Shown here piece by piece: positions 10,350-52,516 of a DNA stretch of 64,000 bases. The stretch's first letter is position 1, and the number at the start of each line of letters is the position of its first letter. Both the position numbers and the translations under genes were made by a program. Source of the stretch: Eledone cirrhosa (taxonomy: Eukaryota); assembly GCA_964016885.1 (NCBI GenBank), contig OZ024750.1, forward strand, positions 37,076,001 to 37,140,000, read 5' to 3'. The notes beneath the pieces are model-generated. The model had not been told where the DNA came from. It worked only from the letters and a program-made list of their open reading frames with translations, and searched no databases.

Positions 10350-10380
<31 letters not shown>

Positions 10381-12553
10381 AGTGACAGTGTTGCTGATGA
10401 TGATGATGGTGAGGGTGGTTGTGATGATGATGAAAGTGAGATTGCGATGCTGAGGAGGAGGATGAGGATCAGTAAACTTGTCTTATTCATTCCATAAAAA
10501 TAAAATACCCATCATCATCATCATCATCATCATCTTCATCTCCATTTAACATTGATTTTCCATGCTTGCATGGGTTAGATGGTTTCATATTAAGTAGGAA
10601 TCGATTGACAAGGTCCCAAACTTCATTAATTTACCGAGTGGGGTGGAACTTGTCAAATCTGACCAAGGAAACAATGTTTCCATCGACCTTTCCATTGCTA
10701 ATAATATCTACCAGTTGCAACTCCTGGCAGAAAGAGCAATGTTAAATAAAGTGTCTTGCTCAAGGACACAATACATTGTCTGGTCCAGTAAGCGAAGTTG
10801 CAACCTCAAGATTGCGAATCTACTTCTCTAAACACTAAGCCATGTGTGTGCCTTCACATATAAATTAAAATAGGTTTATTTTTGCTATATATGTATATAT
10901 TTAAAAGACAACAGAAGGCTGGATTTTAGTCTGGCCTTCTGTTGTATGTAAATAACATCATAGTTTGCTAACTGGAAGGACCAGATCTACTCATTGGTAA
11001 ACCACACAACATAAATAATCTATCTATATATATATATGGAGGCATATGGCTTAGTGGTTAGAGCATTGGCCTTGCAATCGAAAGGTTGTGAGTTCAATTC
11101 TCAGACCGGGTGATGTGTTGTTTCCTTGAGCAAGACACTTTATTTCACATTGCTCCAGTTTACTCAGTTGTAGAAATGAGATGATAGGGACTGGGGTCCA
11201 TATCATTCCACTGCAAAGTGGTTGTGGAGGTGCCACGGCAAAAAAAGCACCCAGCACTCACTGTAAATGAGGTTGGTGTTAGGAAGGGCATCCAGCTGTA
11301 GAAATCAAGCCAGAATCAGTTCCCATCACACCCTTGCAAGCAGGGAAAAGCGGACGTAAAATGATGATGATGATGATATACGAGGTGTGTTAGAAAAGTT
11401 CCAGGACTGATGCCACAAAAGATTTATTTCAAACCCAAACTTCACACTAAGTGTTTTCTCCTTCAAAGTAATCCCCCTGGAGTATGTAACTAATCTTAGC
11501 TTTCTGCAGCGATCAAACTTTTTTCTTCATAATTTTATATACATGTCGTCTGTTTCAGGTCGTCAAGCAATAAGCACAGAGCAACGAACAAACTTGAAAA
11601 CTTCGTCAGAAGCACTGGGATTGCTGCAGCAAGTGTATGGAGATGAGACGGTGTGATGCTCACGTGTTTTTGAGTGGTGCAAGAGGTTTAAAGAAGGGCG
11701 CGAGGACGTGGAAGATGACCCCCAGGAGCGGAAGGTCCTCAACAACCAGGACTGAGGTCAACATTGAGCTCGTCAGGCAGATGGTGCGTAGCAATCGTCG
11801 GCTGACTGTTCGACTGATGGCAAATGAGCTGGGCATGAATTAGGACAGCGTCTGGAAGATTCTCACTGAAGATTTGGACTTGGACATGCGGCAAGTCTGC
11901 GCGAAGATGGTGCCAAAACTTCTGAACGATGACCAGAAGGGTCTACACATGCAAGTGTGCCAGGACATCCTCGAGTATCTTGAAACCGAACCAGACTTGC
12001 TAGGGACAGTCATCACCGGTGATGAGTCATGGATCTTTGAGTACGACCCAGAGGGGACCCGTTTTGAAGACGTAGATGACATCAAAAAGGCCGTGACGAC
12101 GGAACTGCAGAGGAACCCGGAAGAATCCTTCCAGGAGTGCAGGCAAGCGTGGCAGAAAAGGATGGAAAAGTGCATTAGACTCTAGGGGGATTACTTTGAA
12201 GGAGAAAACTCTTAGTGTGAAATTTGGGTTTGAAATAAATCTTTTGTGACATCAGTCCTGGAACTTTTCTGACCCACCTTGTATATATATATAGAGAGAG
12301 AGAGAGAAAGAGATATATATTGTATAAGAAATACAGTATATTGTATATATACCAAATACATATTCCATATAAGAATATGTACACAAGTGTACATATTCTT
12401 ATATGATATATGGCTCTTTCTCTCTCTCTCTATATATATATATCTTTCTCATTTGGTTTATTATGGCTCTATATAATGTCTATTGAGCCTGCTTATTGAG
12501 AAACATAAAATTCTAAATATATTTGATATGTTTTGATTCATTATTTGTATGTA

Positions 12554-12598
<45 letters not shown>

Positions 12599-15500
12599 AA
12601 GTATGACCCCGACGGCACAGCTCAAGTGTTTCGACGGCTATTTCAGAAATAGCCGTCGAAACGGCTTGAGCTCTGCCGTTGGGGTCATACTTTTTCCTAT
12701 TTCCCACTCTACTACCGTAAGTATTGAGTACTCTGGTGCGTTATGGTCCATCTGGTTCCTTACCAAAATTCCTTCGTTATATATATATATATATTTATAT
12801 ATAAACGAACTAGAGAAGAAATTCCAAACGTGGAAGCACGGCCTAGAATCAAAAGGCCTTAAAATTAACCTGGCTAAGACTAAAGTTCTAGTTTGTAGGA
12901 AAGAAAATAAGGTGGCGGTCCCATCGGGGAAATGGCCATGCTCAGTGTGTAGGAAAGGCGTAGGTAGAAACTCCATTTTATGTCCCAAATGCAAAGTATG
13001 GGTGCATAAAAGATGTAGTGGGATCACAGGTAAGCTAACTAAGAACATAGATTTTACATGTGGCCGGTGCTCTGGTGCAATAAGTAGCAGCAAGTGCCCA
13101 CAAATACTAGCTCCTTCAACTGCGCAGAGGGTTCTATAGAAATAGTGGACAGCTTCCGTTATCTGGGTGACAAAATCAGCAGTGGGGGAGGGTGCTCTGA
13201 AAGTACAGTAGCTAGAGTCAGAACTGGATGGAAAAAGTTCAGAGAGCTTATACCACTATTAGCCGCTAGAGGGTTCTCCCTAAAAATGAAAGGCAGGTTA
13301 TACGATGCCTGCATACGAACAGCAATGCTGCATGGCAGTGAGACCTGGGCATTGTGTGCAGAGGATATACGCAGACTAGAGAGGAACGAAGCTTGCATGC
13401 TCCGCTGGATGTGCAATAGTAATATACGTGAACGGCAAAGCATAAACGAATCTAAGGAAAAAATTAGAAATAAGAGGGATCAGATGTTGTTTACTCGAGA
13501 GAAGGCTACGTTGGTACGGTCACGTGATGCGCATGAAAGACGACAGCTGTATAACAAAGTGCAGGGCAATAAAGATAGACGGTAGCCACGGAGTAGGCAG
13601 ACCCAGAAAAACATGGGACGAGCTGATAAATTCCGACCTCACACGCTTACACCTCTCCAAGACAATGTCACTGGACCGAGACCTTTGGCGGTACTCAGTA
13701 ATAGAGAAGACCCGCCTTACCTAAATACAAAGTAAAAACCTACTACAGTCAGTAGGCATCTCTATCAAAACACACCCCCGTCCCACCACCTCCACCCCAC
13801 CCACACCGCCCCTTTCAATGTAAAGTTATGTTGGTCCCACAACATCCAGGCCGAAACAAATGAGATCGTGTAGGTGTCACGACAAAAAAACACACAGTCC
13901 ACGCTGTAAATGTGGCCGTGTAGGCAACACGGTAAAAACCTCCCAGCCCCACACTGTAAATGTGGTTGGTGTTAGGAAGGGCATCCAGCTGTAGAAAACC
14001 CGCCAGACAGTCCACGCTGTAATGTGGCCGTGTAGGCAACACGGTAAAAACCTCCCAGCCCCACACTGTAAATGTGGTTGGTGTTAGGAAGGGCATCCAA
14101 CTGTAGAAAACCCGCCAGACAGTCCTATGCGAGCAAGACAACCACTCTTGCCTCAAGTGGGAAAACCCCCGTCCAAACCCATGCAAGCGTGGAACACGGA
14201 CGCTAAACCTGATGATGATGATGATGATGATGATTGTTGACATAGAACTCTTTGTTTTCTTTTGTAGAAAATTGATTCATCTTTACCATATATGGTAGAG
14301 AAAACATCGACTTATGGGGCCCTTGATTTGGGAGGAGCTTCTACACAAATGACGTTTGTGCCAGCTGTTGATGTAAAGATGCCTGCTGATTTCTCTTTAA
14401 CATTTGAACTATACGGTCATCCCATGACAGTGTATACTCATAGTTACCTTTGCTATGGTATTATTGAAATTATTCGTAAATACAAAGCCAAATTAGTATT
14501 GGTGAGTAGCAACAGTTTCACACTTGTGACTATATTTTTAACATTTATATTTCAATCAATTGTGAAAATTATCATAGATTTAAAGGGATTTAGGAAAATA
14601 ACTTGATCAATTGATCAACAAGATTCCCATGAATTACTGGTATAATCCAGCCAATAAACTTCTGCACAGTTTCTATTTATCTGGTTTCATATGACTGGGG
14701 TTGACCCTAAATCTATGATAAAAGATGTATGTATGCATGGTCCCCTAACTCCTGAGGGAGCTGTAAGGGTGCCATATTGAGATACATTGTTTCTAGGACA
14801 TTTTAAAACCTGGTGGAGCCCATCTCCTCTCTACGTCTGAACACACAGCAGATTTCTTCCAGAGAAGGATAGTGAGAGTGAGAGTGAGGGTGAGAGTGAG
14901 AGAATGGAAGTGAGAAAGAGACTGGGAAGAACAATCAACTCCCAGTCCTTGACTGGGAGTTTTTTTATCAATCTTGAGTGGATGAAAGTTAAAATTGACC
15001 ACTGCAGGATTTGAACTCAGAGATCAGAGAACCAAACCTAATAACACAAAGCATTCTATTGACTCTGCCAATTCACTGCCTATGGTAAAAGATACGCCAA
15101 ATACCACATAGTGACACCCAATGCAGCATTGATTGTAAAATAAACTTTTTAATTATTTGGCTATATTAATGAATTATGTTAATTGTCTATTCCAGTTCAA
15201 GTTTCAGGTATCATATTTACCACACAACATCAATTTTTTTGTTTTTTAATTATATCTTTATTAACAGTATCATTCTGACATTAATTTTATTAAGTTTACC
15301 ATTTTACTGGTTTTCTCCACAGGACCAATCAAAAAATTCTTCTTTAGTACTAAAAACTATCTATAATCCTTGTATGTTGAATGGAAGTACTGCTGAAGAT
15401 AACAAAACCAATCTATTTCAACATCCTTGTGCTTATGTGCTTCCAGGTATAAAGGTATACATAGATTTCTTTCTAGATCTTTCTTCACTAAACATTACCA

Positions 15501-19293: not shown

Positions 19294-21847
19294 TATTGTT
19301 ATATTTGGGGAGGGTCATATTTGCGTAATATTGCCAGGCGTCTAACAATGGCATACCACCCTTGTATGGGCTCCGCAAAGACCACAAGACAGTCGACGAC
19401 CCGACAACAGGACCACCAACAAGACCCGTATGCGGAGCTAATATAGCTAGCAACTACAGGATCTCCTACTTCCTCTCAATGGTTATACGCCCCATAATCA
19501 AGATGTCCCCAGATGTATGTGAAAGTACAGAGGACCTCCTCAGCAGAATCAGTGAGTGCAACAAAAACAGGAGCCTATCCAACTGCATAATAGGCAGCAT
19601 GGATGTGGTGTCACTGTACCCATCCATTAACATTGATTTTGCTGTGAAAAGATGTGTAGAGATGATCATTGAGAGTGAGGTGGAGTTCTGCGACGTCGAC
19701 ACAGACGAACTGGGCCTCCTACTTAGACTTACCTACGACACTGACTACCTAGACAGCCATGACCTTAGATGTTTCTGCCCTAGTAGACCTATAAGAGGTA
19801 GACCCCCCACCATAACCTCAATGGCTAAAAAGACTCCCATAGGAAGGTGGATTGGGTGGACCAAAGCTATACGGACCCCCCAAAACACTGATCAGGTAAG
19901 AAAAATGGTCGCACATGCAATAGGGGCTAGTATCAAAACTACCCTAAAGGGCCACATATTTAAGTTCAATGAGAAAATCTACACCCAAAATGAGGGAGCA
20001 GCCATCGGCGTCAGCATAGCTGGTGATGTTGCCAACCTTTTCATGGTATGGTGGGAAAGGAGACTTAAAGATCTCCTTAATGAAAGCTCCATAGACCTCA
20101 TCATGTACTCTCGTTATGTAGACGATATCAATATAGTTATAAGAACACCCCCACTAGAGAGCACTAACAAGTTTGATTTAGAACGTAGCACGATGGAAAG
20201 CATCCAGCAGATAGCTAATTCCATACACCAGAGTATAACTGTAACTATAGACTTCCCTTCCAAACACCCTAACAATAGACTACCTGTATTAGACACAGAA
20301 CTCTGGATTAACACTATAGACGAGAGAGCCCAAATTCTCCACTCACACTATGCTAAACCCATGGCCTCCAAATACCTGATACTCAAAAACTCAGCAATGT
20401 CCAGTAGTGCTAAGTTTAATATTCTGATCGCAGATTTGGTACGAGTGATGAAGAATGTGTCCAGCATGTGCGACCCAACAGAAATGGAAGGACACATCCA
20501 ACACTTCATCAACCGCATGCAGTTCTCTGGCTACAACCAAAGAGACAGAGTCAGAGTATACGAAGGAGCCATGGAAAAGTATAAGACCCTCATAGAACTG
20601 GACATGAAAGGAATTTGCCCACTATACAGGAGCAAATCATGGAATAGCTTAGATAGGGCTAGACATAAGATAGGGAAGGCCACATCATGGTACGACAACC
20701 AGAGATATCAGAGTGTCATGTTTGTGGACGCCACCCCTGGAGGGAAATTAGCTAACCAGTGTAGAAAGGCCCTGAGAAAGACCCACTTAAAAATAAAGGT
20801 GGTAGAAAAGCCAGGAACCACCATAAAATCCCTGATCAGCAAAACCTACCCTTTTAAGAAAACCCACTGTACCAATAGGAAATGTATCATATGTAAGGTG
20901 AACCCCCGGATAAACTGTAAAACTAGAAACGTAGTCTATAGCATAAGATGTACAGAGGGTACTTGCAGAAACATGACAACAACATACATAGGTGAGACAG
21001 CTCGTAGCATGGGTGAAAGGATAGACCAACACTGGGGGGAACTAAAAGGACGAAAAAACGGGTCAGTACTATACGAACATGCTAGACAACAACATGACGG
21101 TAACATAGACAACATAGAAATTAGAATAATATCTAAACATAGGAATGACCCAGCAGATAGGCAAATCAGAGAGGCCAGTGAAATAGAAATTAGAAGACCA
21201 AAGCTAAACAGAGAGAATGAGTGGAACAACAACAACACCCAAACAAACAACACTGACCTAAGAGAAGTATAAATAAGTAAATAAAATAAAATAAAATAAG
21301 ATAAATAAATACATACACAAGCGCATAAACACACACTAGTCACCCAGCAGACACAACACTATACACACTAGTCACACATCACACATAACACTATACGCAA
21401 ACGCATGCGCAAAGAAGACAAAATAAAATAAGATAAACAAACAAGCAAATAAATAAATAAATATATAGACAGACTGAACAAAAAAAAATGGCGTAGACAT
21501 ACAACACAGGAGGAACAATGAATATAACACCACTGACGATGTTGCAGATGTGCAACGAAAGATTTATGTAAATTATGTAAACTAAATTATATATATGTGT
21601 TCGTGTCTATATTGTATCTATTATTTTTGACCGCCGGTCAGTCAATGGCAACATTAAGGACCGAGTAAGTTAGATCGCAGATATATATATATAAAAGACA
21701 GCGAGAAGCGAAAACCAACCAAACAGTGAGTGTGTTCTGTTATTAATTCTGGCAATATTACGCAAATATGACCCTCCCCAAATATAACAATATCTGTTTC
21801 GACACACGATTTCATATAAAAAACCTCGCAAAACTAATTCATCGCCG

Positions 21848-21916
<69 letters not shown>

Positions 21917-32216: not shown

Positions 32217-34398
32217 CAAAGTTTGTTTTATAAATATTGACCTATCCAGGAAGGAGATCTTAACGGTTCAAGTTTTTCCTGGATATATATGTATCATCAT
32301 CATCATCATCATCATTTTATGTCCACTTTTCCCTGCTCGTCAAACCTGTGTCTGTGCATAGAGTGCTTGATTTGGTACCAACACCATACTATCTACACTA
32401 TATATATATGTATGTATATATATATATATATGGAGGCACATGGCTTAGTGGTTAGAGCATTGGCCTTGCAATCAAAAGGTTGTGAGTTCAATTCTCAGAC
32501 CGGGTGATGTGTTGTTTCCTTGAGCAAGACACTTTATTTCACATTGCCCCAGTTTACTCAGCTGTAGAAATGAGATGATAGGGACTGGGGTCCATATCAT
32601 TCCACTGCAAAGTGGTCGTGGAGGTGCCACGGCAAAAAAGCACCCAGCACTCACTGTAAATGAGGTTGGTGTTAGGAAGGGCATTAAGCTGTAGAAATCA
32701 AGCCAGAATCAGTTCCCGTCCCACCCTTGCAAGCAGGGAAAAAGCGGACGTAAAATGAAATGATGACGATGATATGGAGGTACGTGGCCTACTGGTAAGA
32801 GTGTTGGACTTATGATCATAATGTCGTGGGTTCGATTCCTGGGCTGCGTGTTGTGTTCTTGAGCAAAACACTTCATTTCACGTTGCTCCAGTATACTCAG
32901 CTGAAAATGAGTACCAGCAATAGCTGGAGGTTTAACCCTGCGATGGACTGGCGTCCTGTCCATGGGAGAGTCTTGTACTTTCAGTCGCTTCACACCATGA
33001 AACCGGGATAAGCACCGGCGAAATGAGCCTTCTGGCTTAAGACAGACTTTAGAATTTTTAGATATATATACATATAAACACACACATATACACCACCTAT
33101 ATATATTTGTAAACACACACACACATCTCTCTCTCTCTCTGTATATATTTAGATATATATATATATCAGAGTTTTGTAGCTTGCTTGAAGAGACAAATTC
33201 AAGTTGGAATAAAGATGCACTTTTTATTGATACCTTTTGCCTAGGATTTGAAATAGCAGCACCATGCGTTTTCCATGCAGTTTTTAGTTTGGTGAGGCTC
33301 TCCGGATATCTGCAAGTATATTGTTCCATATACTATTTGGAATAGTTTGAAATACAGGAGTGATATCATCATCATCATCATCATCATCATCACCGTTTTA
33401 CGTTCGTTCTTCCATGCTAGCATGGGTTAGACGGGTTGTCCTGTTGTGGGCAGTGTCTGGTCGGCTGACCATGTCTTGCTCATACAGGAACTGATTTTGG
33501 CTTGATTTCTACAGCTGGATGCCCTTCCTAACACCAACCTCATTTACAGTGAGTGCTGGGTGCTTTTTCCGTGGCGCCTATGATATATTGGTGCCAATGG
33601 TAGCACAGGGATCTGGTTAACCAATGTGCATCAATACTCATATTTTTCAATTTATCATATTTTTTAGGGGTTTCTAAACCCCATCAGGCTAACATTTCTT
33701 TAGTAAAAAAAAATATGCTGAGACCTATTTCAATTTATATATATATATATTATATAATATACAAGATATATATATCATCATCATCTAACTGAAATCATTG
33801 GAAACAATTAGTTGACATATATTCCTGATGGAACAATCTGGACTAAGAACTAAAGAGCTATACATACCAGGTTATCACTATATATCTATTCAGTACACAC
33901 AATATATATATATATATATATATGTGTGCGTTTCTTTCTCCATCTCTCTCTCTGTATACACACACATATATATATATATATATATGTAAATATATATATG
34001 TATATATAAGTAAATATATATATATATATATCTGTAAACATATATATATATATGTAAACATATATATATATATATATATATGTAAACATATATATATATA
34101 TATGTAAACATATATGTATATATGTATATATATGTAAACATGTATATGTATATATATGTAAACAGAAATATGTATATATATGTAAACATGTATATGTATA
34201 TATATATAAACATATATATATATATATATATATGTAAACATATATATGTATATATATATGTATATATATATGTAAATATATATATGTATACATATATATG
34301 TATATATATATATGTAAACATATATATGTATATATATATATGTAAACATATATATGTATATATATATATGTATATATATATATATGTATATATATATG

Positions 34399-34595: not shown

Positions 34596-34708
34596 GTATA
34601 TATATATATGTATATATATATGTATATATATATATATATGTATATATAAAATATTTAAAAAATAATGAATAAAACAATGAAACAGTTCCTTATATTAAAT
34701 AAAAAAAG

Positions 34709-34861
34709 TTCATTATTTAACGATCGTTTCTAGGACATATATGTGTTAGAATTGGTATGCATATTCAACAGATCTATGTACAAAATTATACAAAATTATA
34801 CAAATTATCAAATATAATATACATACCAACACATACATATGCCGTCTTCAGAAATAATGAA
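34709..34861 (-). ncRNA. Type-I hammerhead with long stem II (inverted pLTR copy)
   Basis: Reverse complement of 41733-41885. Confidence 0.75.
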
Positions 34862-35385
34862 ATATATTTATTGATAATAACAACAATTCAAAATTACAGG
34901 TCTGTTTGGGAACAGAGTTCAAATTGACCAATGAAATACACAAAAATATATCAAGAAAATACAGTTAGGTGTGTGTATATATGTAAGTAACTTCGTTCAC
35001 AGATATGCATAAAAATATATGTTCACATGCATACGCATGTCGAAAAAATGTATGTAAATACAAAAATTCAGGGCTAATGTCTCTGTATGTTTATAATCTA
35101 CAGATAAAATACACATACGCATATAAACATATATAGATTCATATATACACACATATATATACACACATTCACACACACACGCGCATATACACATAAACAT
35201 ACACATACCCACCCTCTTGGTAGATTTATCTACATAATTTGCTCCTATTTTCACGGAAATATTCGTATTTGTGTACTGTATGTGTGTGTTAATTTTATAT
35301 TTATGTATATACATATATATGTATGATTTTATAACCCCATATACATTTAGTTGAGCTCTTTCTATTGTCCATCATCCATATCACA

Positions 35386-37805
35386 ATGGAAAAACAATAC
35401 TTGTGAACCTCTTTAAAGAATATACCAATACCTTCTAAGGATGACTTCTTACTCCTTATGATACAGAAAACTAACCAATTTATCAGAAGAGTTAGATGGA
35501 GGGCCTACCACTTCGATAAAAAATCTAAATATGCAGATAGGAAATATATGTATGATTTCAATACTTACAAGAATCCACCACACAACTCTCTACTTGAAGA
35601 CTTTGAGAAAGACCTTTTTAATTTAATTAAACACCTCAAATTTAAAAAGTATAAATCTGTCTTTCAAAAGGACCTTGATTCTACCCTTTTGGACCTAAAA
35701 AAGTCTAAAAAAATCCATGTCCACTCGGATAAAACAGGAAACTTGTATCACATGGATATTGAAGATTATAATGAGTTCATATATAAAGAACTCAGGAAAA
35801 ACTATAAAAAATCTAATAATGCGTCACTCACCAATATCAACAACAAAACACACAACATAGTAAAAAAAACTAAACATTGAAGATAGAACTGAACCTTTGG
35901 CATTGAAAAGACCACACTTTAACCTGAAGGATCATAAATCAAACTTTAACTCAAATCCTTCTATAAGACTTATATGTCCCTCCAAATCTGATATTGGAAT
36001 AATTAGCAAAAAAATTTTGGATAGAGTCATCCCACAAATAAGAAAACATGTTAATTTACCACTCTGGGAAAACACTTCCCAGGTAATTAACTGGTTTAAA
36101 AATATTAGATGTAAATCTTCTGCTTCATTTCTACAATTTGATATAGATAATTACTATTCTTCTATATCACCTATACTCCTGAGCAAAGCTTTGATATTTG
36201 CTAAAAATAGATCTAACTTAACTTTGGATGACATTAATATTATTACACATGCTAGACTAACACTTATTGAATTTCAGAATGAATACTGAACCAGAAACAC
36301 ATATAGTAATCTATTTGATATTACTATGGGTTCAAGCGAATCTGCCCAAATTACTGATCTTTTTAACATAAATGCTTCCTTTCCCCACCTTAAAGGTGGT
36401 TTATATCGTGATGACTGTCTTCTTCTTTCCAACAACCTTAGCCTCTCAAAAATAGAAAAAAACAAAAAGCTTATTAGAACTTTCCTTAAAGACTAGTATA
36501 GTCTTCATATTACTTTTGAAAACACAAGTAAAGTAGTTAATTTCCTAGATATAACTTTAGACTTAGCTACGGGTATCTACCAACCTTACCATAAACCCAA
36601 CCAAAACTTACACTACATACACTCACAATCTAATCACCCTAAATCTATCCTTAAAAACCTTGCATATAATATATCACTTAGAATTTCTAACCTTTCATCT
36701 AACCAAGATGTATTTGATAAAAATGCGACCTTCTATAACGAAGCTCTAGATAGAAGTGGCCACAAAAATAGATTAGAATATATACCTTCTACTAAAAATA
36801 CTATAAACATACAACCTAATATTACCAACAAACACCAAATGAAAAGTACACACCTAAATGCCACCCACACTATACCCCAAAATACCAACAACTCCTCTAA
36901 TATAAAGTATAGTAATTCTCAAAAAACTACTCATCATACAACTCTAATAAATGTTAACAATAAAACTCCTAATAAACATGATAAAACACCTAAATCAATA
37001 AATCTAACTAAAAATGTGCGTGGTGATGTCATTAACATTAATCCTCCTAGTAAACATCACGATACAACCTATAAAAATAATAAACAACATAGAAACCGTA
37101 ATAGACGAGTTACTTGGTATAATGCTCCATTTAATTTACAAATTAAGGATAATATTGCTAAAAAATTTTTTTATATCCTAGAGAAAAACTTCCCGCCAAA
37201 CCACAAATACCATCAAATCTTAAATAGGTCAACAGTTAAATTCTCATACTCAACAACCAAAAACATAAAACAAAATATAAGTGCCTATAATGCATATAAA
37301 TGTAAAAAAACCATAAGTATACCACCAATACATCAAACTAACCATAATATCTCCTCAAATACAGAATTAACGAAAGGTTGTAACTGTAGAAACAAAGCAA
37401 ACTGCCCATTAAAAGGAAATTGTCTTGTTAACAACATAGTTTATAAATGTAATGTTAAAACTAAAGATTCTATTTGCTCATATATAGGAGCTACTTCTAA
37501 CAATTTTAAGGTAAGGTTTAATACCCACAAACATAGTTTTAAAAATGCCGCACTGGCTAATACAACATCTCTAGCAGAAAAAAATTAATAGTTATAGAAA
37601 TAAGAATATAGAATATGGTATGACCTGGAGTGTGCTCAAAAGAGCCACCCCTTATCAAAATAATAGAAATGAATGTAGATTATGTTCCCAAGAACTATTT
37701 GAAATAATGAAATCTAAGGATATCCTATTAAATAAGCGACAGGAATTAATTATATCGTGTAATCATAAACTGAGAAAAACATTTAAATATTATAAACCTA
37801 AATAA
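35386..37805 (+). pseudogene. PLE RT/GIY-YIG ORF with stops and frameshifts
   Basis: SLKNIP, RRVRWRA, DKTGN, LKDHK, RLICP.KSDIG, FDIDNYYSSI, FDITMGS, GLYRDD, FLDI, CNC...CPL.GNC, IVYKC...YIG, C.LC..E. Confidence 0.9.
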
Positions 37806-38458
37806 TAATATATATTTTAGAAATTTAGAAATTAATATATAATTTAATTTAAATGTAGATAACCTATAAATTTAATTTAATTAAATTTCTAATACATATG
37901 AGATAAAAAATATTGTGTAATCATAAATAGTGAAAAACTTTAAAATATTATTAACATAATTAATATATACTTTGTAAATTAATTTATAGATTAATTTTAG
38001 TTTATTTAACCTTTTATTAAAATTCCTTTATAGATGAAATATAACAAAATATCGTGTAATCAATAACAGAGAAATATTTTTTAATATTATAAACCTAATT
38101 AATGTACAATTTAGAAACTTATTTATAAATTAATTTTAATTTAGTTAACCTATAATTTTAATTTAATTAGCTTAAAATTAAAATTCCAATACAGATGGAT
38201 TGCAGAATATCATGTAATCATAAACTGAGATAAATTTTTAAATATATACCTAATTAATATATTCTTTACAATTAAAAAAAAAAATATATATATATATTTT
38301 GGATTTAATGCTCTGAAATAGCGATATATATGTGAAGACAAACATAGAATATTCGAAAATATTCTGTATGTTTATAATAAACATTTTGAAGAACCAATCG
38401 CTATAGAATAGAATACGTCACGTATTACAATTTGAGATTCTCGATAAAAACAAGGGAA

Positions 38459-38501
38459 GTAATCTACGCGTTTCATTCTTATTAGAAATCATCAGGACTA
38501 C
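38459..38501 (-). ncRNA. Minimal type-I hammerhead ribozyme
   Basis: GTAGTC-CTGATGA-T-TTCT-AATA-AGAA-T-GAAA-CGCG-TA-GATTAC. Confidence 0.85.
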
Positions 38502-38770
38502 ATATCCAATGCTTTTATCGAGAACGACACAGCTAGAGACTTATAGAATACTTAGCTGTGTACAGGAACTGGTTTGAAAGAGCGGTAGCCGGTCCGGCAG
38601 AAATTAGAATTTGGATTTAATGCTCTGAAATAGCGATATATATGTGAAGACAAACATAGAATATTCGAAAATATTCTGTATGTTTATAATAAACATTTTG
38701 AAGACCCAATCGCTATAGAATAGAATACGTCACGTATTACAATTTGAGATTCTCGATAAAAGCAAGGGAA

Positions 38771-38813
38771 GTAATCTACGCGTTTCATTCTTATTAGAAA
38801 TCATCAGGACTAC
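38771..38813 (-). ncRNA. Minimal type-I hammerhead ribozyme
   Basis: Identical to the previous unit, 312 bp away. Confidence 0.85.
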
Positions 38814-39082
38814 ATATCCAATGCTTTTATCGAGAACGACACAGCTAGAGACTTATAGAATACTTAGCTGTGTACAGGAACTGGTTTGAAAGAGCGGTAG
38901 CCGGTCCGGCAGAAATTAGAATTTGGATTTAATGCTCTGAAATAGCGATATATATGTGAAGACAAACATAGAATATTCGAAAATATTCTGTATGTTTATA
39001 ATAAACATTTTGAAGACCCAATCGCTATAGAATAGAATACGTCACGTATTACAATTTGAGATTCTCGATAAAAGCAAGGGAA

Positions 39083-39125
39083 GTAATCTACGCGTTTCAT
39101 TCTTATTAGAAATCAGCAGGACTAC
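39083..39125 (-). ncRNA. Hammerhead with core mutation (CTGCTGA)
   Basis: The + strand reads tcagcag instead of tcatcag. Confidence 0.7.
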
Positions 39126-39593
39126 ATATCCAATGCTTTTATCGAGAACGACACAGCTAGAGACTTATAGAATACTTAGCTGTGTACAGGAACTGGTTTG
39201 AAAGAGCGGTAGCCGGTCCGGCAGAAATTAGAATTTGGATTTAATGCTCTGAAATAGCGATATATATGTGAAGACAAACATAGAATATTCGAAAATATTC
39301 TGTATGTTTATAATAAACATTTTGAAGACCCAATCGCTATATTTACATAAAATTGTAATACGTGACGTATTCTATTCTATAGCGATTGGGTCTTCAAAAT
39401 GTTTATTATAAACATACAGAATATTTTCGAATATTCTATGTTTGTCTTCACATATATATCGCTATTTCAGAGCATTAAATCCAAATTCTAATTTCTGCCG
39501 GACCGGCTACCGCTCTTCCAAACCAGTTCCTGTACACAGCTAAGTATTCTATAAGTCTCTAGCTGTGTCGTTCTCGATAAAAGCATTGGATAT

Positions 39594-39636
39594 GTAGTCC
39601 TGATGATTTCTAATAAGAATGAAACGCGTAGATTAC
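39594..39636 (+). ncRNA. Minimal type-I hammerhead ribozyme (inverted arm)
   Basis: gtagtcCTGATGAtttctaataagaatGAAAcgcgTAgattac. Confidence 0.85.
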
Positions 39637-39754
39637 TTCCCTTGCTTTTATCGAGAATCTCAAATTGTAATACGTGACGTATTCTATTCTATAGCGATTG
39701 GGTCTTCAAAATGTTTATTATAAACATACAGAATATTTTCGAATATTCTATGTT

Positions 39755-39789
<35 letters not shown>

Positions 39790-40436
39790 TTTAATTTTTG
39801 TTAACCTATAATTATATTCTACTATAGATAAAATACAAAATCTGCTTTAATTATTATAAACCTAATTAACATATACTATAGAAATTAATATATAATTCTT
39901 TAATTTAGTTAACCTATAATTTATATTCTACTACCGATGAAATACTTGATTTGGTTTTCCCTATTACTAAATTCATTTCCTAATATTGATACCATAATGT
40001 TAATATTTTAATTTAGTTATGATATAATTAATATTCTACTACTGTTTAACTTCAAAATTCCACTTCAAATATTATAAACCTAAGTAATATACACCTTAGA
40101 AATCAATATATTAACTAATTTTATTTTAGTTAACCTTTAATTAATAGTCTACTTATATTAAAATGCATAATTTTGCCTTCTTTCTTACATTTCCTAATAC
40201 TGAAACTACTATGTAAACATATATTATGATCTAAATGCAGATTAATATTCTATGTTCCTTGAAACCTATATTTACTTTTTCCCACTAATAATTTTAATCC
40301 CCTTCCCCCCCCCCCCTATAATTATTTATATTTGTAAGCGTGGATGAATGTATGTGTATGTAAGTAGGTATGTATGTTTGGGTGTTTATATGTGAGTATA
40401 AAAATACATATGTGCGCATGTAAATAAGTGTCTATG

Positions 40437-40477
<41 letters not shown>

Positions 40478-40500
40478 GTATGTATGTATGTATATATATG

Positions 40501-40533
<33 letters not shown>

Positions 40534-40714
40534 GTCTCTATATATAAGTATGTGTGTATGTATATATGTATGTGTGCGTGTGTATATGTGTATATATATT
40601 TGTAGAGATGTGTGTATGTGTATGTGTGTATATATATATATGTGTGCATAATTGTCTGACTGTGTGTATTTATTTATTTATTTATTTTTTTATATATATT
40701 TATGTGTATGTGTG

Positions 40715-40755
<41 letters not shown>

Positions 40756-41021
40756 GAGTGTATGTATATATGTGTGTGTATGTATATATATATGTATATA
40801 TGTGTGTATATATGTGTATATATATGTGTCTGTATGTATATATGTGTGTATATATATATGTGTGTGTATGTGTGTGTACATATATGTGTATATATGTATG
40901 TGAGTTGTGAATATATGTATATATATATGTGTGTTTGTATGTGTGTCTATGTATTTATATATGTATGTGTATGTGTATCTATGTATGTATGTGTGTATGT
41001 ATATGTGTATGTATGTATGTG

Positions 41022-41080
<59 letters not shown>

Positions 41081-41732
41081 GTGTATGTGTATATATATGT
41101 ATATGTATATCGGTATGTATTTTATGTATGAGTATATTTTACTTGTTTATATATATTTTTTTTAATATATTTCTTTTTTATTTCTAAATTTATAGATACA
41201 TTTTATAAATAGGCAGTTTCCCTGACACCCTTAGTAATTACTGAACCCCTTACCCACTTCTGCATTTGGATGTAAAAATATATGTGGCAGTGTTTATGTG
41301 TGTGCCTAAATATCCATATAGTTATAATATTAATATATACATATGTGTGTGTGTGTGTGTGGAGTGTGTGTGTGTATGTTCGTGGGTATGTGTATGTTTA
41401 TGTGTATATGCGCGTGTGTGTGTGAATGTGTGTATATATATGTGTGTATATATGAATCTATATATGTTTATATGCGTATGTGTATTTTATCTGTAGATTA
41501 TAAACATACAGAGACATTAGCCCTGAATTTTTGTATTTACATACATTTTTTCGACATGCGTATGCATGTGAACATATATTTTTATGCATATCTGTGAACG
41601 AAGTTACTTACATATATACACACACCTAACTGTATTTTCTTGATATATTTTTGTGTATTTCATTGGTCAATTTGAACTCTGTTCCCAAACAGACCTGTAA
41701 TTTTGAATTGTTGTTATTATCAATAAATATAT

Positions 41733-41885
41733 TTCATTATTTCTGAAGACGGCATATGTATGTGTTGGTATGTATATTATATTTGATAATTTGTATAATT
41801 TTGTATAATTTTGAACATAGATCTGTTGAATATGCATACCAATTCTAACACATATATGTCCTAGAAACGATCGTTAAATAATGAA
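41733..41885 (+). ncRNA. Type-I hammerhead with 114-nt stem II in PLE 3' pLTR
   Basis: TTCATTATTT-CTGAAGA-[GGCATAT..TGTGTT GGTATGTATATT...AATATGCATACC..AACACATATATGTC]-GAAA-CGATCG-TT-AAATAATGAA. Perfect 10-bp stem I, palindromic stem III. Confidence 0.78.
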
Positions 41886-42087
41886 CTTTTTTTATTTAAT
41901 ATAAGGAACTGTTTCATTGTTTTATTCATTATTTTTTTAATATTTTATCTTGACTCTGTATTCCGTTTATCTTTCACCGAAAGTGATTTTTGAATGCATC
42001 TCTTCTTTCCATGATATCCGGATTATATTGAGTTCTTCATACGGATTGGACACTACCGTAAACTCTTGGTAGATTTATCTACATATG

Positions 42088-42139: not shown

Positions 42140-43805
42140 CATTAAAATATATGATAAACACGAAACGTGTTTACATTGCAACAGACAAAGTTAGCTATTA
42201 ATGAAATAAACTAATTAAAGTGAATACAATTTGTCTGTCTCGATATAAGTCAATAAAGACAAGCTTATATTGGCAACGGCCATGATTCCTGGACAGATTT
42301 AAATTTCTAAATCCAAACCTGTTCCGTAGACGAATTTGAACCTCGAAACCTAAATCCGTTTCGCAACGGTGGTATGTGAATTGAAAAATAAAGAGAATCG
42401 AAATGGAGTAGAAATAAAAAGTGAAATATCCAAATCTTCTGTGCTTATCAAAAGGAATCCAGTACAATTAGTACATCTCACATCAAAAATGTTGCAGGTC
42501 TGACTACACGTGTGTAGCCAGGCCAAACTAGCCGTCTCGCATTCACGGTGCTAGAAATAACAGCCGTTTATGCGGGATTAAAGATCATCTCTACAATAAA
42601 GGAGCAATATACTATATTATATTTTGAGAATAAACTCTCAGGCGTTTACAATAATTAAGCTCCAGGAAAAGGGGCTTTTCCGAGCAGTTAAATACATTAA
42701 AATATATGATAAACACGAAACGTGTTTACATTGCAACAGACAAAGTTAGCCATTAATGAAATAAACTAATTAAAGTGAATGCAATTTGTCTGTCTCGATA
42801 TAAGTCAATAAAGACAAGCTTATATTGGCAACGGCCATGATTCCTGGACAGATTTAAATTTCAAAATCCAAACCTGTTCCGTAGACGAATTTGAACCTCG
42901 AAACTTAAATCCGTTTCGCAACGGTGGTATGTGAATTGAAAAATAAAGAGAATCGAAATGGAGTAGAAATAAAAAGTGAAATATCCAAATCTTCTGTGCT
43001 TATCAACAGGAATCCAGTAAAATTAGTACATCTCACATCAAAAATTGTGCAGGTCTGACTACACGTGTGTAGCCAGGCCAAACTAGCCGTCTCGCATTCA
43101 CGGTGCTAGAAATAACAGCCGTTTATGCGGGATTAAAGATCAGCTCTACAATAAAGGAGCAATATACTATATTATATTTTGAGAATAAACTCTCAGTCGT
43201 TTACAATAATTAAGCTCCAGGAAAAGGGGCTTTTCCGAGCAGTTAAATACATTAAAATATATGATAAACACGAAACGTGTTTACATTGCAACAGACAAAG
43301 TTAGCTATTAATGAAATAAACTAATTAAAGTGAATACAATTTGTCTGTCTCGATATAAGTCAATAAATACAAGCTTATATTGGCAACGGCCATGATTCCT
43401 GGACAGATTTAAATTTCAAAATCCAAACCTGTTCCGTAGACGAATTTGAACCTCGAAACCTAAATCCGTTTCGCAACGGTGGTATGTGAATTGAAAAATA
43501 AAGAGAATCGAAATGGAGTAGAAATAAAAAGTGAAATATCCAAATCAAGTGAAATATCAGGAATCCAGTAAAATTAGTACATCTCACATCAATAAGCTTG
43601 TCTTTATTGACTTATATCGAGACAGACAAATTGTATTAACTTTAATTAGTTTATTTCATTGATAGCTAACTTTGTCTGTTGCAATGTAAACACGTTTCGT
43701 GTTTATCATATATTTTAATGTATTTAACTGCTCGGAAAAGCCCCTTTGCCTGGAGCTTAATTATTGTAAACGACTGAGAGTTTATTCTCAAAATATAATA
43801 TAGTA
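42140..43805. repeat. Non-coding 555-bp tandem repeat (about 2.6 units) + inverted arm of about 215 bp
   Basis: Units start at 42140, 42695 and 43250. 43592-43805 is an inverted copy spanning a unit boundary. TA at both ends. Confidence 0.92.
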
Positions 43806-43867
43806 TGTATATATATATATGTATATATATGTATATATATATATATGTATATATATGTATATATATG

Positions 43868-44016: not shown

Positions 44017-44254
44017 GCGTATATATATATATATGTATATATATATATGTATGTATATATATATGTATGTATATATACATGTATGTATATATACATGTAT
44101 ATATATATACATGTATATATATATATATGTATATATATATATCAAGTAAATATGTTTTGAAACAGTGAGCAGGTTTGAAATTAGAAAATAGAATAGCTTT
44201 CACCGTATTTTTGACTAAAGGAATTTTAGCCTGATAATGCGGTTCAGAACCCTC

Positions 44255-44437
<183 letters not shown>

Positions 44438-44497
44438 TATATGTATAAGAGACTTAAAATAAGAAAATTATAAAATTAACTTACTTACTAAAATATC

Positions 44498-44579
44498 ACT
44501 TCCAACTAATTAGTTTCTGGAATGGAGTAAATACATCTTCCGAAGAAGGTGTAGAGAATCATCCCGTCATCAGGAAAGT
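44498..44579 (-). ncRNA. Type-I hammerhead, stem II capped by cUUCGg
   Basis: ACTTTC-CTGATGA-cGGGATG..TACAcCTTC-TTCG-GAAGaTGTA..CATTCCa-GAAA-CTAATTAG-TT-GGAAGT. Confidence 0.8.
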
Positions 44580-45005
44580 CTATTCTCATATAAGTCTACA
44601 GGCAAAGCGAGGACTCTGGAAGCTTATTAAAAAAATAAATCTCAAAGCGTGGACTGAAATCCTAGCCATTGAGAAAATCACTGCCTCTGTGTCCGTGGCA
44701 AATTCAAAAAGAATCAAACAGGTGACATCGAGGTCAATCAGTGGAAAGTGGGTTGTTAATAAGACAGCGACCAGCCTACTACCGTAGCAGCAGTCATGGC
44801 CAGTATTGCTCGACAAATAATTTGGAGATAATAATAAAGAATTCATATCTAGTAACATATATATACATACAGATGCATATCGATGCTAGCAAATATATAG
44901 GTTATGTCTTAATAACATTGTGGTTCAATGCATGGGGTTGCAGAACAATAATATAAGAGACGTAAAATAAGAAAATTATAAAATTAACTTACTTACTAAA
45001 ATATC

Positions 45006-45087
45006 ACTTCCAACTAATTAGTTTCTGGAATGGAGTAAATACATCTTCCGAAGAAGGTGTTGAGAATCATCCCTTAATCAGGAAAGT
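45006..45087 (-). ncRNA. Hammerhead copy with core mutation (CTGATTA)
   Basis: Second direct repeat, G8 substituted. Confidence 0.6.
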
Positions 45088-45139
45088 CTATTCTCATATA
45101 AGTCTCCATATATGTATATATGTATATACATAAGTCTAC

Positions 45140-49181: not shown

Positions 49182-49242
49182 ATATATATATGTATATATA
49201 CAATATTAAATAAATGGAAAACTATATTTATAAAACCATATT

Positions 49243-49308
49243 TATTTCATTATATATATTTCGGGGATATCATATTAACAATATGTTATGCCTTCATCAG
49301 ACAAAATA
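49243..49308 (-). ncRNA. Type-I hammerhead in PLE 3' pLTR
   Basis: TATTTTGT-CTGATGA-stem II (CATATT/AATATG core)-GAAA-TATATA-TA-ATGAAATA. Confidence 0.75.
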
Positions 49309-49664
49309 CAATATAAACAGTTTTATAGATAAATATATTCGACATACCGTAATAAACATCGACTTCATTTGAAGAGGTTTACGCTAGCAGTGAAAATTTT
49401 ATACAGAGAGAAAGAAAAAGAAAAAGAAAGAAAGACAAAACGAAGAAAAGGAAGAAAAAGAAGAAAAAGAAAAAGAAGAAATGCAGAAATGCATGGAACA
49501 AAATAGAGAGATGGAAAATAGATAAAGCGAAGAGCTTCATGTAAAGAAACAGAAAGATATATATATATATAGAGAGAGAGAGGAAATAGAGATAGATACA
49601 TATATATATATATAGAAAATTAGGTAGTGGGAGGTCATTTTGAGTAAGTGTATCAATGATACAT

Positions 49665-49695
<31 letters not shown>

Positions 49696-50869
49696 GCTCA
49701 AGTATTAATGTAAGGGAGATATATAGAGAGAGAAAAAAAATTTAAAAATAGCCAGACATATTCGAGGCGTAGAAAACCCTATGTTTTAATGTATTAGTAT
49801 TTATAAAACTTACACTACATTGTAAATATCAGTATTCCTGAATGAAACAAGTATCCACAATGTGTGAAAATTCATTATCTTATGTTTAGTTTTATAAAAT
49901 TAATATGTTTATGTGACAGCTACAAACATCCATGTGAATCCAACTGATTCACTCTGCAAACTCTAAGTGACCGGAAAACATTCTCAATGTGGTATAAAAA
50001 TTTGAGTGTATTATTATTCCTGCGATTACTCTACAAGATCATCTATCAAGCAGAAATAGAGAGCAGATTTCAATATACTAATAAAAATATATATTATACT
50101 ATAAACAAAACTAAAAATAAAAAGATAACAATAATAATAATAATAATAAGTAAAAATATAGAATAGAAAACTAAAAAAAATAAAAAATATAAAAAAATAT
50201 TATTATTATTATTATTAAATATTAAAAAAATAATATAAAACTAAAAAAATATTACGAAAGAATATTACATAATAAAAATATTGCATACTAAAAATACTAC
50301 GTATTAAAAAATATTACGTATTAAAAATTTACATATTAAAGATATTAAAAATATTAAAAATGAAAATAAAAATAAAAATAAAAATAAAAAATGAAAATAA
50401 AAAATAAAAATATTATAGAATACTACAATACTAAAAAAAATATTATAGAATACTACAATACTAAAAAAATAAAAATAAAAATAAAATAAAAATAAAAATA
50501 AACCACAAAGAACAACCCTTCAAAGTTAATTGACAATATATTGCCAAGTTCATTACAAGACAAAGCCAAAAATTATCTATCAAATCACATCTAGCAAAGA
50601 ACATTTCAAAAAGATTATGATGTCCAATTATGTCTACATATGTTCTTATATTTAATATAGAAGTTTATCTAGTGTAAGGTTAATTCAAAAAATTTGGAGC
50701 ATCGGCTTTTAGGGTAGCTTAATTTTTCATGAGGAATGTTTAGATGAAAATAAAAATAAATAAAATAAAAATAAACAATAAAAAAAGAGTAAAAAGAGGG
50801 AATCAAAGATTTAGGAATCAAAAGATTTATCGGCTAGTTCTCATATAAATATAAATCAAACTAAATATA

Positions 50870-52516
50870 CTACATTTTAAATTTAAATTTATATTTAAAC
50901 GTTGAGTTTAATCTATGTTTGCAACAACTGAATAAATTTGTCCGTAGGTTAAGGGAATTTTTAGATTTTAGTATAAAGAATATCTCCTCTGCGCAGAGGT
51001 CACATGTCTCAGAGGATGAATTAAAAGGAATCCCTCTTGAGACTATATTCCAAGCCGTCGAATATCTAACGTTATCTAGCTTAAGTTGCCAGAGTACGCC
51101 TGATAGTGCCGTTGAAGATTTTTTACTTGGATCCGTGAAAGAATTCTTGTGGTTATTATAGCGAAGTTTAAATTCCGTCGATGTGGAACCGACGTAGTTA
51201 AAAGAATTAGAGTCAGTATTAACATTACAATTGTATACTATATTTTTAACTAAGCAGTTGTTATTTAACGGACATTTAGATCTATCTCTACAGTTACATT
51301 TGTTAACTTGTATATTATTTATGCTATTATCAGTAGGTTTTAAGTTCCTATTATTTATTCTATTAATATTTTGTGCTAAATTTTTGGTGGATGAGTAGGT
51401 TAATTTAATTGTATGCCTATTGAAGATTGAGTGATACCTATGTGTTCTAGGGAAGCGATTATCAAGAGCTTTGAAAAATAATTTAGCGATGTGGGTTTTA
51501 ATGTTTAGTGAGAAAGGGGGGGCAAACCAAATTATGTTCCTAGTTCTATTTCTTTTTTGTCCTTTGGAATTATTGTAATGCTTTCTATTATAGTTGTTAA
51601 AGTTGTTGCCGTAATTAAAAAAGTTGTTACTTTGTTTAGTTTGTCTATCATTATCTATGTACACAATCTTATCAGTATACCCTGCCCTAGCTAGTGCATC
51701 ATTATAGTACTGGGCCTTTTCGTCAAAAATCTTTCTATTCGACGAGATCCTAGAGATACGTTTTTGGACTGAGTTTACTATAGTGTTTTTGACAGATCTG
51801 GGGTGGTTAGAGTTAAAGTTGACATAGTTTAAGTTTTCATTCAACTTGTGAAAAGGATAGTGGAGACATGTGTTGAGATTTAATGTTATATCTAGGAAAT
51901 TGACTATTCTATGGTTGTTCTCAATTTCTATTTTAAGGTTAAAGTAATTAAAAAATTTTGTAATTTGTTTACATTTTCTATTTAGTTCAGGGTTATTATT
52001 ATTAATAAGTAAAAGCATGTCATCCCTATATAAACCTCCGGTAGTACCAGGTATTTTCCTATGTAGCGAATTGATTAAAAATAAGCCCACAAGGTCAGTT
52101 ACCTGAGCTGAGTCGGAAGATCCCATAGTTATGTCAAAATTGCTATCTCTATCTGCTCTGGTCCATAATTTGTCATTAAATTCTATCAAAGTTTTCCTAG
52201 CCGATAATATAATATGCATTTCTTTGCTAGTTAGGTCCGTATGTTTGAATGCGTAATTTAGTGCCTTATTTAGTAGACTAAGGGTAATAGAAGAATAATA
52301 GTTAGCTATATCAAGTTGAATAAACCTATTATTATTGTTATATTTAATTTGCCTAAACCACTCAACAACCTCTCCAGTTCCCTTCCACAAGCTCAGGTTA
52401 GATACACAATCCAAGTTCTTAATTTGCTGTATCACCCTGTCAAGAATGTTTTTGCTTAATTTGCCCAGGTCCGATTTTGAAGGTGCGATCAATCTAACTG
52501 GCAGGTCATTTTCAAA
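50870..52516 (-). CDS. PLE RT + GIY-YIG endonuclease (5'-truncated, uninterrupted)
   Basis: VRLIAPSKSDLG, LDIANYYSSI, FDITMGS, GLYRDD, NFLDI, WFAPPF, CNCR..CPLNNNC, IVYNC...YVG, CDLC..E. The first residues of the ORF-track entry (start 52543) are junction-derived. Confidence 0.9.
   Translation of the reverse strand, partial: FENDLPVRLIAPSKSDLGKLSKNILDRVIQQIKNLDCVSNLSLWKGTGEVVEWFRQIKYNNNNRFIQLDIANYYSSITLSLLNKALNYAFKHTDLTSKEMHIILSARKTLIEFNDKLWTRADRDSNFDITMGSSDSAQVTDLVGLFLINSLHRKIPGTTGGLYRDDMLLLINNNNPELNRKCKQITKFFNYFNLKIEIENNHRIVNFLDITLNLNTCLHYPFHKLNENLNYVNFNSNHPRSVKNTIVNSVQKRISRISSNRKIFDEKAQYYNDALARAGYTDKIVYIDNDRQTKQSNNFFNYGNNFNNYNRKHYNNSKGQKRNRTRNIIWFAPPFSLNIKTHIAKLFFKALDNRFPRTHRYHSIFNRHTIKLTYSSTKNLAQNINRINNRNLKPTDNSINNIQVNKCNCRDRSKCPLNNNCLVKNIVYNCNVNTDSNSFNYVGSTSTEFKLRYNNHKNSFTDPSKKSSTALSGVLWQLKLDNVRYSTAWNIVSRGIPFNSSSETCDLCAEEIFFILKSKNSLNLRTNLFSCCKHRLNSTFKYKFKFKM

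Follow-up and report, generated by a model that had tools for sequence, protein, structure and literature searches.

Non-LTR retrozymes of animals are described as tandem units that are non-coding and poor in GC (35%), each with a single type I hammerhead; they are dispersed as monomers to multimers and presumed to be mobilised by Penelope-like elements (Cervera and de la Pena, 2020, PMC7229834; Li et al, 2026, 10.64898/2026.07.22.740005). The unit described here is alike in all these respects, as far as the accessible parts of these two reports extend. Penelope-like insertions have a recognisable layout, with two fixed ends, a tail, an inverted arm and an AT-rich target (Craig et al, 2021, PMC8557442, in the sections available). 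According to the accessible text of Frangieh et al (PMC11167929), the tail is the stretch between two internal start sites of the reverse transcriptase (RT), and both strands of the target are cut and extended. With regard to the ribozyme, hammerhead cores with a U3-A8 pair are natural and active (PMC3088659, available part), and such a core has been reported in the Penelope-like Cercyon elements of Schistosoma, there in minimal hammerheads (PMC4209133). The available sections of the latter paper also describe elements of fungi and protists with a large helix III, and cleavage in the monomeric form for one of them; in most metazoan hammerhead motifs, helix III measures 1-2 bp (PMC4209133, PMC6765202, as far as their accessible text goes).

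The locus lies in a 64,000-nt stretch of the Eledone cirrhosa genome, hereafter the window, in which all positions are counted. The insertion (42140..43806, sense on the minus strand) comprises 2.6 tandem units and a 215-bp inverted arm inside (TA)n, which flanks it on both sides. Unit copy 1 (42140..42694, minus) begins at a 'short' fixed terminus, defined as unit position 1. Copy 2 (42695..43249, minus), with 98% identity to copy 1, is the sole copy in the window with an intact hammerhead, and partial copy 3 (43250..43595, minus, about 350 bp) has the 5' core strand of its hammerhead broken near 43546-43558. The inverted arm (43592..43806, plus) runs from unit position 129 to 1 and then from 555 to 470, thus across the unit boundary, and ends at a 'tail' terminus (unit position ~468-470), an 88-nt tail (43721-43808) lying within the arm end. 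These coordinates agree with the layout given in a preliminary description of this DNA, namely a 555-bp tandem array of about 2.6 units with an arm across a unit boundary and TA flanks. The (TA)n is situated at the 3' end of an older, frameshifted Hydra-like Penelope-like element (34648..42085, plus), which provides the context of the insertion. The 555-bp unit folds better than 100/100 of its shuffles on each strand (z -5.9 on the minus and -4.1 on the plus strand), its longest ATG-started frame is 22 aa when checked in the dimer, and no tRNA was found by a tRNA search of the unit; the structured non-coding RNA that had been suggested is corroborated by the folding and the short frame.

At the genome level, the 555-bp unit gave 1931 candidates in 3.0 Gb, the best 40 scored of which yielded 46 near-full copies of 95-100% identity. 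A profile detected a diverged relative in 200 kb of flanking DNA, a 567-bp unit for which 972 candidates were obtained, and two pattern searches of the genome returned 467 and 847 exact matches, with 0 in the reversed controls. The 170 full-length segments, in which overlapping loci are counted more than once (125 are distinct), form 18 clusters or subfamilies; the unit length varies from 505 to 567 bp across the family, and the subfamily representatives are 64-100% identical in pairs. More distant relatives may exist. Members of the 555-bp and 567-bp families are immediate neighbours in one locus (L169, G000:C4:41.05 Mb), the former being inserted in the TA run.

The insertion anatomy was established from 78 insertions, 48 of the 555-bp family after removal of repeat views and 30 of the 567-bp family, a few of them local duplicates; 54 are inverted and 24 one-directional. 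A short end at unit position 1 is combined with a tail end in 47 of the 54 inverted insertions, the others being tail with tail (1), short with short (0) or carrying one other end (6). The tail measures 88 nt in the 555-bp family and 76 nt in the 567-bp family, the ends lie in (TA)n and the inner junctions of the inverted arms are scattered. Rare variants are common to both arms in 24 of 199 cases, a figure that bears on the question of a single template. Copying by Penelope-like machinery, as had been advanced, is supported by the 47 short-plus-tail insertions in (TA)n, since they match the two internal RT starts described for a Penelope-like protein in the available part of PMC11167929. Tandem units and terminal inverted arms might equally recall an ordinary satellite, a Helitron or a MITE, but the insertions are dispersed over many chromosomes with 1-4.7 units each, their inversion junctions vary, their two fixed ends are of unequal length and the RNA covariation described below is strand-specific. 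The termini census refutes such an assignment, which for a satellite or a Helitron the preliminary description had named as an outcome contrary to its own reading, and we give it practically no credence.

The fixed ends also define the sense of the unit. If the tail is the gap between two RT starts, as the accessible text of PMC11167929 indicates, then the fixed ends are 3' ends and the sense is the minus strand, as had been predicted. The folding agrees: the minus strand surpasses the plus strand in 6 of 7 consensuses (15 shuffles each), and the alignment fold reaches -138.9 on the minus against -94.7 on the plus strand. RNA-editing scars were sought among singletons and gave no clear excess (A>G 42 versus T>C 40).

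The most salient aspect of the unit is a motif on its minus strand which is, in the predicted fold, a type I hammerhead with a U3-A8 core variant and long stems II and III, present once per unit. In copy 2 the hammerhead occupies 42835..43017 (minus), where stem I pairs 43017-43007 with 42846-42835, the core U3-A9 (UUGAUAA) lies at 43006-43000, stem II pairs 42999-42997 with 42920-42918, GAAA lies at 42917-42914, stem III extends over 42914-42848 and GUC lies at 42849-42847, with the predicted cut at 42847/42846. The hammerhead of copy 1 (42280..42462, minus) has its core at 42451-42445, GAAA at 42362-42359 and the predicted cut at 42292/42291; the first pair of its stem I is mismatched (U-C, 42452). 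An alignment of 19 rows, made of one real copy for each of the 18 clusters and copy 1 of the window, folds as a nested rod whose junction is composed of stem I, UUGAUAA, a 3-bp stem II with a long loop, GAAA, a long stem III and GUC, UUGAUAA being the U3-A8 swap of the C3-G8 pair. The hairpins listed in the preliminary description were found in their places, including a 13-bp stem (42848-42877) with three G-U pairs on the minus strand; here the 3' arm of stem III pairs with itself as a local alternative, the predicted fold of stem III being a stem of 27 bp.

The core is numbered here according to what we take to be the usual hammerhead convention. U3, U4, G5, A6, A9, G12, A13, A14, A15.1, U16.1 and C17 are identical in 19/19 rows; position 8 is A in 18 rows and G in one, and position 7, a free position, shows one variant. 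The GUC cut triplet is invariant in all 19 rows. Overall, 11 of 12 core columns are invariant versus 47% of the gapless columns, or versus a background of 50% when the four rows found by a core-covering pattern are left out (again 11 of 12), which corresponds to p about 0.002-0.003, valid if columns are independent. The alternative outcome considered beforehand, that of an ordinary hammerhead that had simply decayed, fails because the core is kept across subfamilies that are only 64-70% identical.

The examination of homologues for covariation, which had been suggested from the outset, points in the same direction. The 68 proposed pairs are paired in 94.4% of the cells, and 14 of them change on both sides, against 7.5+/-1.6 in shuffles (0/500 shuffles) and at most 6 in slid controls; as the rows share ancestry, the covarying cells represent few independent events, and the structure itself derives from this alignment. 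The first pairs of stems I and II both change from G-C to A-U in the 567-bp family. Stem I is paired in 97.6% of cells and carries an invariant bulged A. Stem II has 3 bp next to the core, the first of which is G-C in 14 rows, A-U in 3 and an A-C mismatch in 2; with its loop it spans 41-92 nt across the consensuses, and both ends of loop II have conserved nucleotides. A further stem II pair, proposed between columns 294 and 379, was dropped, as it is paired in 0/19 rows. Stem III, a hairpin of ~27 bp spanning 66-67 nt in 17/18 consensuses, is paired in 96.9% of cells, and in 13 of its 23 pairs just one side varies, mostly with an exchange of Watson-Crick and G-U pairing, so that the pairing is kept on the minus strand alone.

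It can be asked why this motif escapes standard searches. An exact CUGANGA is absent from both strands of the 18 subfamily consensuses, so the initial statement that no CTGANGA fold is present was right for the exact core, but it overlooked the U3-A8 hammerhead on the minus strand. Rfam gave no ribozyme at gathering level anywhere in the window and none at E<=10 in the window unit or in a short-loop copy, HDV-like, twister, pistol and hatchet included for the unit; a neighbouring hammerhead, used as a control, matched HH9 (E 9.7e-09). An Rfam match of the unit to snR66 is taken as chance (28.5 bits against a cut-off of 65). The long stem III and the long stem II and loop account for the failure of both the CUGANGA searches and Rfam, whose models do not allow such insertions, and the Rfam result therefore reflects a detection limit rather than a structural criterion. 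One hammerhead scan with loops of at most 45 nt missed the motif, as did a second, which permitted long loops only with at most one mismatch and found 3 of 4 positive controls. A new descriptor, in which any 3-8 pair and long loops were permitted, gave a single match in the window region, namely copy 2, with a chance of 5/5000 shuffles. As first set, it matched 11/18 consensuses; in a relaxed form, set after the data had been seen, it matched 16/18 subfamily consensuses in sense and 0/18 in antisense, and 90 of the 125 distinct full copies.

These results bear on the idea that the unit is a hammerhead-less, non-autonomous element of the Naiad or Chlamys type, in which the hammerhead-like arrangement would be due to chance in a structured RNA. 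Naiads have pLTRs, inverted arms, tails and (TA)n targets, with no canonical hammerheads according to the accessible part of PMC8557442, and Rfam sees no ribozyme in the unit. Yet all the core strands occur here in the right order and spacing (the 5/5000 above), GUC is invariant and the junction pairs covary, which renders this explanation very improbable. The hammerhead reading is consequently retained, and with it the headline of the preliminary description, an unrecognised self-processing RNA, gives way to a hammerhead with a known U3-A8 swap and long stems II and III. Its alternatives of a divergent ribozyme, a different one or none resolve in the same sense: a divergent ribozyme is supported, while the conserved hammerhead strands speak against a new class or none.

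The canonical hammerheads already indicated in the neighbourhood are present at 38495, 38807, 39119, 39600, 44573, 46571 and 59689. The first four, canonical type I motifs in which a U-U pair forms the base of stem II, belong to a 312-bp retrozyme (38298-39758) of 3.3 units with an inverted arm and a tail of about 39 nt, nested in the 3' region of the older Hydra-like element mentioned above. A 508-bp unit (44447-45105) carries the minus-strand hammerhead at 44573, with a canonical core and a stem II/loop II of 49 nt. Similar short CCUGAU-stem-loop motifs next to TA runs (33650-33700, minus; 44225-44257, plus) resemble degenerate hammerhead cores. Across about 1.1 Mb of loci, at least 20 distinct canonical type I hammerhead contexts were observed, several with a stem II/loop II of 26-49 nt. 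Elsewhere in the window (10250-15500), short exon-like frames among repeats, with the motif GALDLGGAST at 14268-14606, resemble what we take to be an ectonucleoside triphosphate diphosphohydrolase.

The predicted energetics are less uniform. Of the 18 consensuses, only 3 have the hammerhead fold as their minimum-energy structure; in 14 others its energy exceeds the minimum by 0.9-6.5 kcal/mol, and in one by 11.6 kcal/mol. In copy 2 of the window the difference is 4.4 kcal/mol, the core strand being predicted to pair with the loop II insertion. Arm breakpoints show no enrichment at the cut site (1/80 and 1/52 arms, versus 1.3 and 0.8 expected), and the arms crossing it, 66/80 and 41/52, do so partly by selection for full copies; that most arms cross the site fits a circular template and an uncut multimer equally. 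An element of the same kind and of hammerhead ancestry could thus be envisaged in which the ribozyme is slow, misfolded or dependent on a protein, with the RT copying uncut multimers and no RNA circle being formed. This would be consistent with the hammerhead fold lying above the minimum in 15/18 consensuses, with the cut site devoid of breakpoint enrichment, and with PMC11167929, in the available part of which the hammerhead cut only with protein and mutants were without effect on insertion in vitro. Against it, the conservation of the core nucleotides at 64-70% identity implies selection on catalysis, and with a long stem III dimerisation, which is usually required, becomes unnecessary, as described for a fungal case in the accessible text of PMC4209133. 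We regard such a sluggish ribozyme as rather unlikely, and prefer one that would cut tandem transcripts.

A second conserved module is found at 43081..43136 (minus), with a stem that covaries at 2 of 8 pairs around a nearly invariant block of ~20 nt (43103-43120) and a possible 5-bp pseudoknot. The block has the highest sequence conservation in the unit, partly by selection of the copies through the pattern search; the two main families independently share it at 22/22. The pseudoknot pairing is kept in 98.9% of cells, but 4 of its 5 pairs never vary and so lend it no support. A near-identical 15-mer recurs in at least four unrelated sequence contexts. The 15-nt motif was seen in the flanks of several loci (L125, L152, L190, L019, L235, L101, L130, L206), in several unrelated repeats, one carrier being a tandem repeat of ~91 bp; in L206 a GCUC/GAGC-type hairpin comes after it, which may indicate another retrozyme family. 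The recurrence in unrelated contexts leads us to prefer, for the ~20-nt block, a putative host DNA-binding site acting as a promoter; an RT-binding fold would be the alternative. Could this module be a separate, new self-cleaving motif? Its conservation, its covarying outer stem and the nearly complete pseudoknot pairing could suggest so. However, the pseudoknot pairs are for the most part invariant, the 15-mer would fit a DNA-binding site, a hammerhead is already present in the unit and Rfam returns no ribozyme match at E<=10; we accordingly attach very little weight to a second ribozyme. By-eye comparisons with consensus features gave no fit of the module to HDV-like, twister or pistol ribozymes. 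The promoter reading remains the one that we prefer.

A donor of RT and endonuclease was sought among the Penelope-like elements. Two young autonomous families occur in the window, with proteins of 1217 aa and 737-745 aa. The latter has RWR, DKT and CxCX5C motifs and a full ORF of 737 aa in one locus (L064), and would belong to the Hydra clade by the motifs described in the accessible part of PMC8557442. Its window representative (49209..52935, minus) is a 5'-truncated copy with an 88-nt tail and is our candidate donor; the family, in the window at 49209-55353 and in loci L061-L090, has copies of 98-99% identity and 92,836 first-look candidates, other families included. The 1217-aa family (window 19329-21848, loci L031-L060) is very young, with a frame of ~1217 aa, copies of 99-100% identity, 45,203 first-look candidates, a tail of ~59 nt and an atypical hammerhead-like motif in its 3' UTR near 21530; we take it to be Neptune/Nematis-like. 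Several further Hydra-like families, of 30-55% protein identity, were observed in the 200 kb flank. Hydra-like families with GUUGAGC shortly before the start codon (L092, L094, L096, L142 and window 35213-35390) display there the same motif as the candidate RT start hairpin.

The link between the unit and the Hydra-clade element resides in their ends. In the element, two sites separated by 87 nt account for 31 of 32 TA-flanked ends, each site lying just 5' of an RCUCC-N-GAGY hairpin, and the unit family has GCUC-N-GAGC hairpins in the same two places. In the window these lie directly 3' of the tail terminus (43143..43160, minus) and of the short terminus (43214..43240, minus), and both are candidate RT start signals. 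The pattern is absent from five control stretches, namely the end of the 1217-aa family and four neighbouring retrozyme stretches; a similar hairpin motif occurs 9 times in the 200 kb flank, both strands counted. Local alignment of the unit to the element is weak, with p<=0.05 in 3 of 18 consensuses. An ORF-bearing element with the hammerhead of the unit, or with profile-level similarity to it, was absent from 30 loci each of the 1217-aa and Hydra-clade families, the 200 kb flank, 71 loci from three pattern searches, 20 stretches and 10 further stretches. Two 2.5-kb spacings considered as an autonomous partner proved to be local duplications, and a match of 14 nt to the 1217-aa element, located within the ORF of the latter, is attributed to chance. 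L261 and L262 are local 2.5-kb tandem duplications in which a copy of the family is included. On balance we lean, with restrained confidence, towards the Hydra-clade element as the donor of RT and endonuclease.

Taken as a whole, we consider it probable that the unit is a non-autonomous Penelope-type retrozyme, bearing an enlarged U3-A8 type I hammerhead on its minus strand with a predicted GUC cut of tandem transcripts. We propose that tandem copies would be transcribed on the minus strand and that the hammerhead would cut once per unit, probably as a monomer, since stem III is long and stable. Cleavage would give monomers of 505-567 nt, possibly made circular by an RtcB-type ligase of the host. 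An RT/GIY-YIG protein of Penelope-like type, with the Hydra clade as its most likely source, would nick both (TA)n strands, and reverse transcription would start internally, just 5' of one of the two GCUC-N-GAGC hairpins; the template, either a circle or an uncut multimer, would be copied through the cut site. The joining of two such cDNAs would produce back-to-back arms with one short and one tail end. It can be further hypothesised, as a bolder proposition which we hold to be possible though doubtful, that this lineage remodelled its hammerhead to a large size, active as a monomer and perhaps able to act as a switch, that it recruits the Hydra-clade RT through a small transferable hairpin setting both start sites, and that some Penelope-like clades regarded as hammerhead-less may hide hammerheads which escape notice in the same way, through a U3-A8 core and long insertions.

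Several points of general interest follow. Animal type I hammerheads are described with a helix III of 1-2 bp and often with dimeric cleavage, and a 27-bp helix III with a stem II/loop II of 41-92 nt kept under selection constitutes a natural test of the tolerance of insertions and of their use as switches. A hammerhead that is missed by both Rfam and CUGANGA descriptors is also a concrete blind spot; the statement that Naiads lack hammerheads rests, in the available part of PMC8557442, on a core-only search for cuganga with a 7-17-nt spacer. The hairpin of ~20 nt situated just 3' of both fixed ends, in the unit family and in an intact young Hydra-clade element, offers a defined protein-RNA pair with which to ask how Penelope-like RTs choose internal starts and whether they copy retrozyme circles, a process proposed but not shown in the accessible literature. 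No account of an animal retrozyme that combines a U3-A8 core, a long loop II and a long stem III was found in the accessible parts of the literature searched.

The comparison with known systems places the unit as follows, within the accessible text of the reports cited. Like Naiads and non-autonomous Chlamys elements (e.g. MRC1), it forms tandem, inverted and tailed insertions in microsatellites in which standard descriptors detect no canonical hammerhead, but a non-canonical hammerhead is present and its tail is of 76-88 nt instead of 30-40 (PMC8557442). With Hydra-clade elements it shares the (TA)n target, the tail at one end and the inverted arm (Craig et al, 2021, PMC8557442), and with the young Hydra-clade family of this genome the tail of 87-88 nt and similar hairpins beside both ends; it differs from that family in having no ORF, a U3-A8 core in place of a canonical C3-G8 hammerhead, and alignable sequence limited to about 40 nt at the tail end. 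The U3-A8 core and the large helix III are both known among Penelope-like hammerhead variants, but apart, the core in minimal hammerheads and the large helix III in elements of non-animals, whereas the unit unites the two, together with a long loop II, in an animal non-autonomous element (Cervera and de la Pena, 2014, PMC4209133). Relative to the described animal non-LTR retrozymes, the unit is larger (505-567 versus 150-450 bp) and its helix III is of ~27 bp instead of 1-2 bp with a palindromic loop (PMC7229834; 10.64898/2026.07.22.740005); its stem II and loop of 41-92 nt, its U3-A8 core and its invisibility to Rfam set it further apart. On the features tested, the unit is nonetheless an animal non-LTR retrozyme: a known system in variant form, and no new class of ribozyme.
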